64,000 nt of DNA from Thermoplasmata archaeon (GTDB taxonomy: Archaea > Thermoplasmatota > Thermoplasmata > Thermoplasmatales > Thermoplasmataceae), in contig JAJZZM010000015.1 in NCBI GenBank assembly GCA_021797555.1, positions 2,110 through 66,109 on the forward strand, in the 5' to 3' direction. Shown in pieces: positions 8,302 to 54,753 of the stretch. How positions within the stretch are numbered: position 1 is the first letter of the stretch; each line of letters starts with the position of its first letter. The translations under genes were made by a program, and so were the position numbers. The notes beneath the pieces are model-generated. The model had not been told where the DNA came from. It saw nothing but the letters and a program-made list of their open reading frames with translations, and searched no databases.

Positions 8302-8685
8302 ATGTATACAGATCTGATCAGTAGCACTATTAATTACATTAAAAAACTGGACAAGCAAAATAGGATAAAATTTATTGTTAATTATGGTTCCTATGCAAAC
8401 GGCACATTCCATAATGGTTCTGATATTGATTTGTGCATTTATTATGATGGAAACCAGGGGGAACGAAACAAATTTAGATTAAATGTGCTCTCAGAAATAA
8501 ATGATATTTTTGATGTGCACATATTTCAGGATCTGCCACTTTATATAAGATTCAGTGTTTTGAAGGGAAAAATACTCTATTATAAAGATAAGGATATATA
8601 TGACATTTTTAGATTAACAATAGAGGAATATGAGGATTATAAACGCGGATATTATGATTATATAAACCTGGAGAAGATACAATGA
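8302..8685 (+). CDS. mntA: MNT-type nucleotidyltransferase antitoxin (DUF1814-unrelated minimal NTase)
   Basis: GSYANGTFHNGSDIDLCIY is the G-S...D-x-D polymerase-beta-type NTase motif. It has an ATGA overlap with the HepT start. Confidence 0.75.
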   Translation: MYTDLISSTINYIKKLDKQNRIKFIVNYGSYANGTFHNGSDIDLCIYYDGNQGERNKFRLNVLSEINDIFDVHIFQDLPLYIRFSVLKGKILYYKDKDIYDIFRLTIEEYEDYKRGYYDYINLEKIQ

Positions 8686-8753
8686 GAAATGATATAATAA
8701 GGAATAAAATAACCGAATCCAAGAAAGTTTGGAATTAATATGGGATAATTTAC
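8682..8753 (+). pseudogene. hepT: HepT (HEPN/DUF86) toxin, 5' fragment, interrupted by an IS and apparently frameshifted
   Basis: The ATG at 8682 gives MRNDIIRNKI, then the frame dies at 8736. The +2 frame, open from 8708, reads NRIQESLELIWDNL up to the TTAC at 8750-8753. Confidence 0.65.
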
Positions 8754-8967
8754 AAATCAACATACCAGAAAGAAAGCCACTGAGTTTACGATGTGGATGA
8801 ATTTCCGGAAATAAGGAAATTAAATATTTAATAAATAATTATCAATTTGAATGTTTTCATAATTTATGAATGATGTGATTTTTAAAATGATGATAAATTA
8901 TATATTTTTAGAATAAATACAATAAATAATAATATTTATATAATATTATAATATTTAAAATAAATCA

Positions 8968-10333
8968 TTGATTAACATGATTGATACATCAGAAGAGAAA
9001 AAGAATAAAATAAAAGATTCATTGAATAAAACAAAAGAAAAAAGGAAATCACAGGAAATAGCAATTATCAAAACAAAGCTCGATTATGATAAATTAAATA
9101 AAAATACATTAAAAATATTAAATAGAATATTCTTGGAGGCTAAATGGCTATACAATTATATAATAAATAAGGAATTCAACAATGATATTTTTAATATAGA
9201 TTATAAAATAAATGAAGTACCAGTGTATGTAAAGGACCATTATGAAACAAGGAAATTAAAATATATATCATCACAGATGAAGGAGGAAATAATGGACCGT
9301 GCAATAGACAATATAAAAGGATTGCATGAATTAAAGATAAAAGGATTTAAAATTGGATCACTTAAATACAAATCTAAAGTAACATCAATACCATTGAAAC
9401 AGTATGATATTACATATAAAATAATAAACAATAAATATATTAAAATACAGGGTATAAAACAGAAATTAATGGTAAATGGATTGGATAATCTGTAATACTA
9501 TTTTGAACCATCAAATGCATTGTTAACCAATAAAAACAACAATTATTATATCTACATAACAGCATATAAAAATAAATACATTTTAGATAAGCCGATAAAT
9601 AATCAAAAAATAGTATCTATTGATTTAGGAATTAAGAATCAATTAACATTGTCAAATGGTCTTATACTAAACTACAATATACCAAAATCTAAAAGAGAGA
9701 AAAGATTGCAGAGAAGATTATCTAAAAAGGTTAAGAACTCAAACAATTACAGGAAATTAAACAATAAACTAAATATAGAGCAAACTAAAACAGTTAATAA
9801 GAGAAGGGATACTATTAGTAAAATAGTCCATTATATATCAACAGATTATAATATAATAATAACACAGAAAGACAATATAAGAGGATGGAAGCATCTCTTT
9901 GGAAAAAGAATAGAATCAACAAATATAGGTGGAATAATAGAGGCACTTAAACATAAGGCTTCAACATTTATATTATTGGACAGATTTATTCCAACAACTA
10001 AAGAATGCTCAAAATGCCATAACAGGTATGATATAAAATTAGATGAGAGAATCATACAAATGCCCTAATTGTGGTTTTATTATAAACAGGGATTATAATT
10101 CTACATTAAATGACATATATTATGGAATTATAGAATTGAATAAGAAATTAATAATTAAGAATAGAAAATTAAATAATTATTTTAAGGAATATAATATAAA
10201 TATGAAAATACCTGCGGAGCGCTTAAGGGAATATACGCCTGTGGAGATTGATGCCCCTGCCCTGGAAGGATTAAGTCCGCATGTAAGGGTAAGCATGGTC
10301 GATGAATCAGGAAGCCTCTATGCCTTGGCATGA
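8968..10333 (+). pseudogene. tnpB: tnpB (RuvC-like RNA-guided nuclease family), disrupted
   Basis: Three track ORFs make up the gene. The first two share a frame and are separated by an in-frame TAA (9493-9495). The third is reached by a frameshift around 10046-10058. Motifs seen: VSIDLGIKN (RuvC I) and a zinc ribbon CSKCHN...YKCPNCGFIINRDYNSTLN. Confidence 0.75.
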
Positions 10334-10343
10334 GGTAGCTCAC
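10206..10343 (+). ncRNA. putative omega/right-end RNA scaffold of the tnpB element
   Basis: This segment is distinctly GC-richer, overlaps the tnpB 3' end and runs to the IS terminus. It is conserved at 54609-54753 and, more distantly, on the minus strand at 40099-40190. It contains a short hairpin, atgcc-tt-ggcat. The RNA role is inferred from the TnpB literature and was not observed here. Confidence 0.45.
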
Positions 10344-10690
10344 CAGATTCATTTGATGAATTCCAGAACCTTGGCATTATAAAGGATGGCATATACAAAA
10401 GGCTCGAATATTCTATTGAAAATTTAATAGACATTTTTTATATAATTAATTCGGATTTGGAGCTTGGAATACCAGGTGATGATTCCCCAATGATAGACAA
10501 CCTCTACAATAATGAAATTATAAGCATTGGAATTAGGAATTTAATGAAAAACATGAAGGGTTTCAGGAACATTATTGTCCACAGATATGGGAAAATAGAC
10601 GATAGACTTGCATATATATTCACAAAGGATAATATTAATGATTTTGATGTTATAATAAAATGCGTGGATAATATAATTCATAAATACTAA
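10344..10690 (+). pseudogene. hepT: HepT (HEPN/DUF86) toxin, 3' fragment
   Basis: PDSFDEFQNLGIIKDGIYKRLEYSIENLIDI...MKGFRNIIVHRYGKIDD carries the R-x4-H HEPN motif. It is in the same frame as track ORF 10457-10690. Confidence 0.75.
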
Positions 10691-54484: not shown

Positions 54485-54753
54485 TAACATTTAATATAAA
54501 TGTGGATGAATTCCTATAATAAAATATTTATATAATATATTTTAATAACATCAAATAATAAGAGGAATAATAGAAGCACTTAAATTAAGGCTTCAACTCT
54601 TATAAATAAAATACCTGCGGAGTGCTTAAGGGAATATAAGCCTGTGGAGATTATTGCCTCTGCCCTTGAAGGACTAAAAGCCCGTATGTAATGGTAAGCA
54701 ATGGTCAATGAATCATGAAGCCTCTATGCTTTGGCATGAGATATCTTACTCAC
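54485..54753 (+). mobile_element. 269-bp internally deleted (MITE-like) copy of the 8754-10343 tnpB element
   Basis: It starts right after TTAC (54481-54484). It contains left-end pieces (atgtggatgaattcc, tatttatataatat), a short tnpB-internal piece (ggaataatagaagcacttaaattaaggcttcaac, compare 9928-9962) and the full right end (acctgcggagtgcttaagggaatataagcctgtggag...ggcatgagatatcttactcac). Confidence 0.75.

Follow-up and report, generated by a model that had tools for sequence, protein, structure and literature searches.

What has split HepT, the toxin gene of a Thermoplasmata MNT/HepT toxin-antitoxin pair, and is the insert programmed against the intact toxin allele? The locus lies within a 64,000-nucleotide stretch of contig JAJZZM010000015.1 (the window). 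A preliminary description, made from the sequence alone, had proposed that an insertion sequence carrying only tnpB sits directly 3' of TTAC inside HepT and, being RNA-guided, is potentially aimed at the uninterrupted gene. The structural part of this interpretation, in which an IS200/IS605 element without tnpA has entered 3' of a TTAC, is retained here, while its functional emphasis turned out not to be special to this locus. It is very probable that the whole locus is explained by insertion of a tnpB-only IS200/IS605 element into a TTAC of HepT by a Y1 TnpA acting in trans, followed by decay.

An interrupted MNT/HepT pair

The coordinates of the locus (Table 1) agree on re-reading with those given previously for MNT, the HepT frames and the join between 8753 and 10344. 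The MNT translation shows the GS..x..DIDL motif, and the MNT stop codon overlaps the HepT start as ATGA. From this overlap, the initial HepT frame runs into a TAA at 8736–8738; a second frame reads ..ESLELIWDNL and reaches 8753. The HepT frame goes on from 10344 as PDSFDEFQNLG..FRNIIVHRYGKID.. as far as 10690, with the R-x4-H-x-Y motif at 10565–10588, which places the cut in HepT at 8753|10344.

Two genomes of the same genus (G005 and G010) contain intact pairs, with an MNT of 130 residues and a HepT of 140 residues that likewise overlap by ATGA. The frame is kept when 8753 is joined to 10344 (..ESLELIWDNL|PDSFDEFQNLG..), and the joined HepT aligns without gaps with both intact proteins (..ESLELINDNFPASFDEFQNLG..), in line with the earlier statement that excision restores the gene. 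When the window without 8754–10343 was aligned with the two genomes over 800 bases, no gap was found at the junction, and the only gap in the HepT gene was a deletion of one nucleotide. Therefore, there is neither a target duplication nor natural extra HepT sequence at this point, and the orthologous loci support the boundaries.

The deletion lies next to 8715/8716, within the interval (8708–8735) where a frameshift had been suspected, and is private to the window (ccg-aatcc, compared with aagaaatcc in the orthologues). It shifts the frame and thus brings in the TAA at 8736–8738; it sits in a short A run, where a sequencing error is possible. As read from the sequence, HepT is inactivated twice, by the 1590-bp split and by the frameshift, and the intact MNT is left orphaned, as had also been pointed out. 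The locus resembles MNT/HepT (type VII) pairs in that MNT comes first, overlaps HepT by ATGA and has the nucleotidyltransferase motif, and in that HepT carries R-x4-H-x-Y; Pfam, translation and the intact orthologous pairs agree on this identification. It differs from them in that the toxin gene is interrupted and frameshifted, leaving the antitoxin alone intact and the pair without a functional toxin.

Boundaries of the element

The genome from which the window derives (1.94 Mb in 24 contigs) was searched by DNA; the terminal bases of the element (120 at the left, 150 at the right) served as BLAST queries, and flanks were taken from their hits. Besides the window element, the search recovered a second full copy with 85% identity and, at the edge of a contig, half of another (96%), along with dozens of end fragments. 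The 24 left ends begin with AAATCAA.., some with small variants, and are preceded by TTAC in 21 cases, TCAC in two and ATAC in one. The 12 right ends finish in ..TCAC (TAAC in one), and the sequence downstream is unrelated between copies. When 17 right ends from this genome and from related ones were aligned, conservation was lost exactly after the terminal CAC (10343). The segment 8754–10343 is thus a discrete element, composed of a left end, a tnpB pseudogene, a putative guide-RNA scaffold and a right end.

A position immediately 3' of a specific short motif, together with the lack of a target-site duplication, is that of an IS200/IS605 element, and confirms what had been noted for the TTAC; this motif is predicted to be both target site and transposon-adjacent motif (TAM). 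Judged from the aligned ends, the terminal TCAC takes the part of the transposon-encoded motif where the right end is cleaved. Since TCAC differs from the TAM TTAC, the occupied site would be no target.

Family assignment and the transposase

The window element lacks a Y1 tnpA, and no intact tnpA was found in the 24-contig assembly, where the only trace is a 40-residue Y1 fragment beside a left end; the search for a tnpA elsewhere in the genome, proposed as a check, thus returned this fragment alone. Contig ends fall inside copies of the family at C12:2-795, C16:66-279, C18:40359-40464, C22:34-139, C21:108215-108418 and C2:189995-190181 (C denotes contigs of this genome). Further near-identical copies are probably hidden in assembly gaps, which makes the numbers of copies, and likewise the absence of tnpA, lower bounds.

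Full-length relatives carry the transposase. The complete genome of a same-genus organism (G007) contains an element of about 2 kb that follows TTAC (TTAC|AAATC..) and has a 137-residue Y1 tnpA overlapping a 461-residue tnpB, and the same right end. A Methanosarcinales contig has a Y1 tnpA and a homologous tnpB arranged as in G007, together with the same right-end sequence. Because these Y1 tnpA-tnpB relatives share its ends or its right end, the window element is of IS605 type, and by this homology it is best classified as a non-autonomous, tnpB-only member of IS200/IS605.

The comparison with IS608/ISDra2-type elements and their tnpB-only (IS1341-like) derivatives supports this assignment: both insert immediately 3' of a short motif (TTAC for IS608) and leave the target unduplicated, the ends are non-identical, the right end has a subterminal hairpin, tnpA overlaps tnpB in the full-length relatives, and the 3' end of tnpB is shared with a structured RNA adjoining the flank. 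In contrast to these elements, the window copy has no tnpA and a broken tnpB, and its right cleavage motif is TCAC. The ISGst1–5 elements of Geobacillus stearothermophilus (bioRxiv 10.1101/2023.03.14.532601) are alike in combining one left-end family with differing cargo, in their many non-autonomous copies and protein-less, PATE-like mini elements, and in having a left-end TAM that is the TnpA target, with a donor joint made of TAM plus right flank. They differ in that the host here is an archaeon with no intact TnpA found in its assembly, and in that excision, RNA and cleavage are here predictions from sequence.

The tnpB pseudogene and its clade

The preliminary description was right that the element has one tnpB-like gene and no tnpA, and had overlooked that this tnpB is a pseudogene. 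An in-frame TAA at 9493–9495 replaces the AAA of the intact copy, and the frame is shifted within the zinc-ribbon region by an extra C at 10053, which is missing from both other copies. Both lesions are private to the window copy in alignments to the C11 and C12 copies, and its nuclease is therefore dead. The fragments match the Pfam families OrfB_IS605 (9.5e-11) and Cas12f1-like_TNB (zinc ribbon, 9.5e-5).

An intact sister tnpB of 454 residues is found at L002:1729-3093 in the same genome, within the full copy. Its product matches the solved ISDra2 TnpB (5.5e-14) and has hundreds of homologues. Close homologues with organism names come from Acidiplasma and Ferroplasma (73–78% identity), which fits the mine-drainage origin of the sequencing runs that hold the stretch. 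In the HMMER alignment, Gln300 of this protein is opposite Glu278 of ISDra2 TnpB (RuvC-II). The glutamine is invariant in 23 homologues (42–85% identity), named members of which come from Acidiplasma, Ferroplasma, Methanosarcinales and Promethearchaeota, and an Asp or Glu is always found two residues downstream. The glutamine was considered as a third lesion of the window copy, and this was rejected on account of its invariance; it is a clade-wide rearrangement rather than damage. RuvC-II rearrangements, some of them almost exclusive to archaea, are on record (PMC10691335). An intact TnpB with a RuvC D-E-D triad and zinc ribbon is thus not encoded by the window copy, owing to its TAA and frameshift and to the glutamine of the clade.

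A conserved RNA fold at the right end

The last ~110 nt of the element form a conserved, covarying RNA fold. Seven divergent right ends were aligned, and four helices were found in which 96% of cells pair, compared with 25–41% when the partners are slid by 1–3 columns. Five pairs show two-sided compensatory changes, and the covariation score was reached in 0 of 500 shuffles. The scaffold core consists of an outer stem (CCUG/CAGG), an internal loop and an inner stem with compensatory changes, and the RNA overlaps the conserved C-terminal tail of TnpB (TPVE..PYV..S.V.E.GSL..LA). The palindrome that follows the core is likely to serve both as the TnpA recognition hairpin and as the last stem of the scaffold. 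On this comparative evidence, a conserved structured RNA lies at the tnpB 3' end and right end and stops at the transposon boundary.

A search of the right end against Rfam gave nothing at the gathering level, and only a sub-threshold, full-length match to RAGATH-18. Six elements (the window copy, two sister copies, and those of G007, Methanosarcinales and Promethearchaeota) match this family over its full length and in the same place at 21–25 bits (21.5–25.4), all below the gathering score of 44.9. The scaffold therefore resembles RAGATH-18 without being a member of RF03064, and the suggested comparison with known omega RNA models gave a likeness short of a family match. RAGATH-18 is the guide-RNA core of IS607 TnpBs, which have the TAM AGGAG and an RNA outside the reading frame, and it has been reported to accompany IS607 TnpBs only (PMC11061315). 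The present scaffold shares with those guide RNAs a core of ~75 nt, an outer stem, the GGAG / GAUGAA letters of the internal loop and a position ~30 nt upstream of the guide. It differs in its sub-threshold scores, its location within coding sequence, the TAM TTAC instead of AGGAG, and the association with a Y1 transposase instead of a serine recombinase. A RAGATH-18-like core recurs within the 3' coding end of tnpB genes that adjoin Y1 transposases.

The predicted guide and its target

In the published homing model, TnpA excision rejoins the flanks as a donor joint (TAM plus right flank), which TnpB cuts with an RNA running across the right end into the flank, and recombination then restores the element (PMC8612924; bioRxiv 10.1101/2023.03.14.532601). 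By this model every copy is aimed at its own empty site, of which HepT is one instance. The proposal that the element is notably programmed against the toxin allele was therefore not upheld: the property is generic to TnpB elements, the resident tnpB is dead, and the guide has no target in its own genome. Its sole perfect match there is its own flank, preceded by TCAC; neither a TTAC-preceded match with up to three mismatches nor a second HepT copy was found in this genome. Among the sister copies, insertions are seen in a glycosyltransferase-like frame, open for at least 307 residues once the element is removed, and in a transporter-like frame; another copy lies 5 nt upstream of the ATG of a hydrolase-like gene, these genes being named from motifs. 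As the interrupted genes are unrelated, nothing indicates a preference for toxin genes.

Because no intact tnpA was found in the assembly, the target is not expected to arise by excision. The resident nuclease being dead, any activity would moreover need TnpB from another copy; such use in trans is possible, the right ends being 87% identical. No RNA run was found among the listed sequencing runs that hold the stretch.

Origin of the insertion

These observations are best accounted for by a tnpB-only IS200/IS605 element that would have moved as single-stranded DNA into a TTAC of HepT in a Ferroplasmaceae-like archaeon, with a Y1 TnpA acting in trans as the catalyst. No duplication or other scar would have resulted, TTAC standing before the element and its own TCAC at its end, and the insertion would have persisted because loss of the toxin was presumably harmless to the cell. 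HepT would have lost its single base after the insertion or earlier, and the element would have decayed as tnpB gained a stop codon and a frameshift. With these lesions and an assembly lacking an intact tnpA, the window copy is taken to be immobile. Its right end still encodes a conserved structured RNA scaffold that, if transcribed, would continue into the adjoining HepT sequence and have the empty site TTAC+CAGATTCATTTGATGA as its target. Such a guide would be usable only through a TnpB supplied by another copy, following the generic TnpB homing design.

Several points weigh against this account. The orthologues are only 79% identical, and their junction reads CTTTC|C or CCTTC|C compared with TTTAC|C in the window, which makes the TTAC target a trait of the window's lineage. 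An empty-site allele from the same species was not found, and the insertion is therefore inferred from these orthologues; the expected empty junction is ..GATAATTTAC joined to CAGATTCATT.., and scans of metagenomes for this junction (24-mer) and for the left flank plus TTAC (23-mer) each gave 0 matches, which is uninformative either way. Several of the 24 contigs break within element copies and may hide a tnpA. The covariation test comprises seven sequences, with the structure derived from the same alignment. The right-end hairpin is conserved, whereas the fold of the left end scores no better than shuffled sequence (z -0.13). Finally, with the RuvC-II glutamate changed to glutamine throughout the clade, nuclease activity is putative even for intact copies.

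A draft assembly could in principle have produced the same picture, if a repeat had been misjoined into HepT and the single-base lesions were sequencing errors. The genome is indeed in 24 contigs, several of which end in element copies, and the HepT deletion lies in an A run. A misjoin is not expected to give two junctions that are base-exact at TTAC and TCAC and restore the frame, and the window copy has its own sequence, 85% and 96–98% identical to the others. In addition, four runs of one mine-drainage metagenome study (probably DNA) each hold 51–71% of the sampled words of the stretch; they may include the source sample. An artefact is thus highly improbable. The same low standing is given to mobilisation by a serine recombinase as an IS607-type element, a reading suggested by the full-length RAGATH-18 likeness at the same place in six elements and by the published link of that RNA to IS607 TnpB. 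The scores are far under the gathering threshold, the flanking motif is TTAC and neither AGGAG nor GAGGG, the RNA lies within the tnpB frame instead of outside it, homologous tnpB genes adjoin a Y1 HUH transposase, and a target duplication is absent.

A more far-reaching scenario accepts the insertion and adds a function. In it, the right end of the dead element still makes a guide RNA, with which TnpB from a sister copy destroys incoming intact hepT (TTAC+CAGATTC..) in trans, so that the allele bearing the insertion sequence is driven through a recombining population. The genome does encode an intact TnpB of 454 residues, the right end of that copy is 87% identical to that of the window, the window scaffold retains all four helices, and the homing mechanism itself is published (bioRxiv 10.1101/2023.03.14.532601). 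Set against this are the lack of RNA runs among those holding the stretch, the lack of a guide target in the same genome, and a TnpB clade without the canonical RuvC-II glutamate; the argument would also apply equally to every copy and is not specific to toxins. The metagenome scans found no empty allele, a result that is uninformative in either direction. Both the trans cleavage by an orphan guide and the resulting allele exclusion are considered very unlikely, and insertion followed by decay is preferred.

Related elements in the genome

Protein-less mini elements of 224–295 bp were found in the same genome, each consisting of a left end of ~50–100 nt and a right end of ~150 nt with the RNA scaffold. 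They are PATE-like in that the flanks they adjoin differ from one to the next; in the one located in the window, the left end is degenerate. A self-targeting mini element, with a right end mutated to TTAC, was considered at ~54600–54753 and rejected, as the sequence ends in ..CTTACTCAC with the usual TCAC. Elements at C11:155078.., C10:104165.. and C14:80517.. have a TTAC-flanked left end of the same kind (76–83% identity) and other TnpB types with strong zinc-ribbon profile matches, so that one left-end family carries several cargoes. Upstream of the intact element copy by ~700 bp (L002:91-787, contig C11), a HEPN-domain-like protein (132 residues) is followed by a nucleotidyltransferase (102 residues). 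Named from motifs only, these constitute a different, uninterrupted toxin-antitoxin-like pair.

Table 1. Features of the interrupted HepT locus and of related elements (window coordinates unless a contig or locus is given).
Feature	Position	Strand	Basis
MNT-type nucleotidyltransferase antitoxin gene	8302..8685	+	intact, 127 aa; Pfam PF18765 (Polbeta) 2.2e-16, PF01909 (NTP_transf_2) 3.8e-12; orthologues 130 aa in G005, G010
HepT 5' fragment	8682..8753	+	translation; one single-base gap relative to intact orthologues in DNA alignment
TTAC target site / TAM	8750..8753	+	directly 5' of left end; 21/24 left ends follow TTAC; likewise in G007
tnpA-less IS200/IS605-type element, 1590 bp	8754..10343	+	multi-copy alignment; gapless orthologue alignment after in-silico excision
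tnpB pseudogene	8968..10333	+	open reading frame list; Pfam on fragments; alignments to C11, C12 copies
Putative guide-RNA (omega RNA) scaffold core, RAGATH-18-like	10238..10313	+	Rfam RF03064 23.2 bits, full-length (gathering score 44.9); covariation
Subterminal imperfect palindrome of right end	10314..10336	+	DNA fold; 96% of cells pair across 7 divergent elements
TCAC, last four bases of element	10340..10343	+	11/12 right ends TCAC, one TAAC; kept in distant relatives
Predicted guide segment, first 16–20 nt of HepT 3' fragment	10344..10363	+	conservation stop at 10343; guide-is-flank rule (PMC8612924); inferred
HepT 3' fragment	10344..10690	+	PF01934 (HepT-like) 7e-19, profile positions 16–119 of 120; R-x4-H-x-Y; 79% DNA identity to intact orthologues
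Mini elements	window ~54500-54753; C12:20579-20854, C14:29699-29988, C14:118568-118862, C22:22565-22851, C10:76616-76839 (same genome)		
RAGATH-18-like cores elsewhere	L002:2992-3073; L003:690-765; L067:327-408(-); L068:2662-2752; L069:2689-2779		

Significance

The locus is a clean instance of well-understood transposon behaviour and involves no new mechanism; the understanding of TnpB and of toxin-antitoxin systems is unchanged by it. If the trans-guided scenario were true, a transposon remnant would serve as a heritable, RNA-programmed barrier to regaining the toxin gene, and the disrupted allele would be driven by it. For annotation, HepT is to be recorded as a pseudogene and MNT as an orphan. 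For an archaeal IS605 lineage in Ferroplasmaceae, many copies now define the TAM TTAC, the right-end motif TCAC and the exact ends, and Methanosarcinales and Promethearchaeota contigs carry the same right-end sequence. The invariant RuvC-II glutamine of this lineage may interest TnpB specialists, and a RAGATH-18-like core that lies in frame and adjoins a Y1 transposase blurs the reported association of this RNA with IS607 only.

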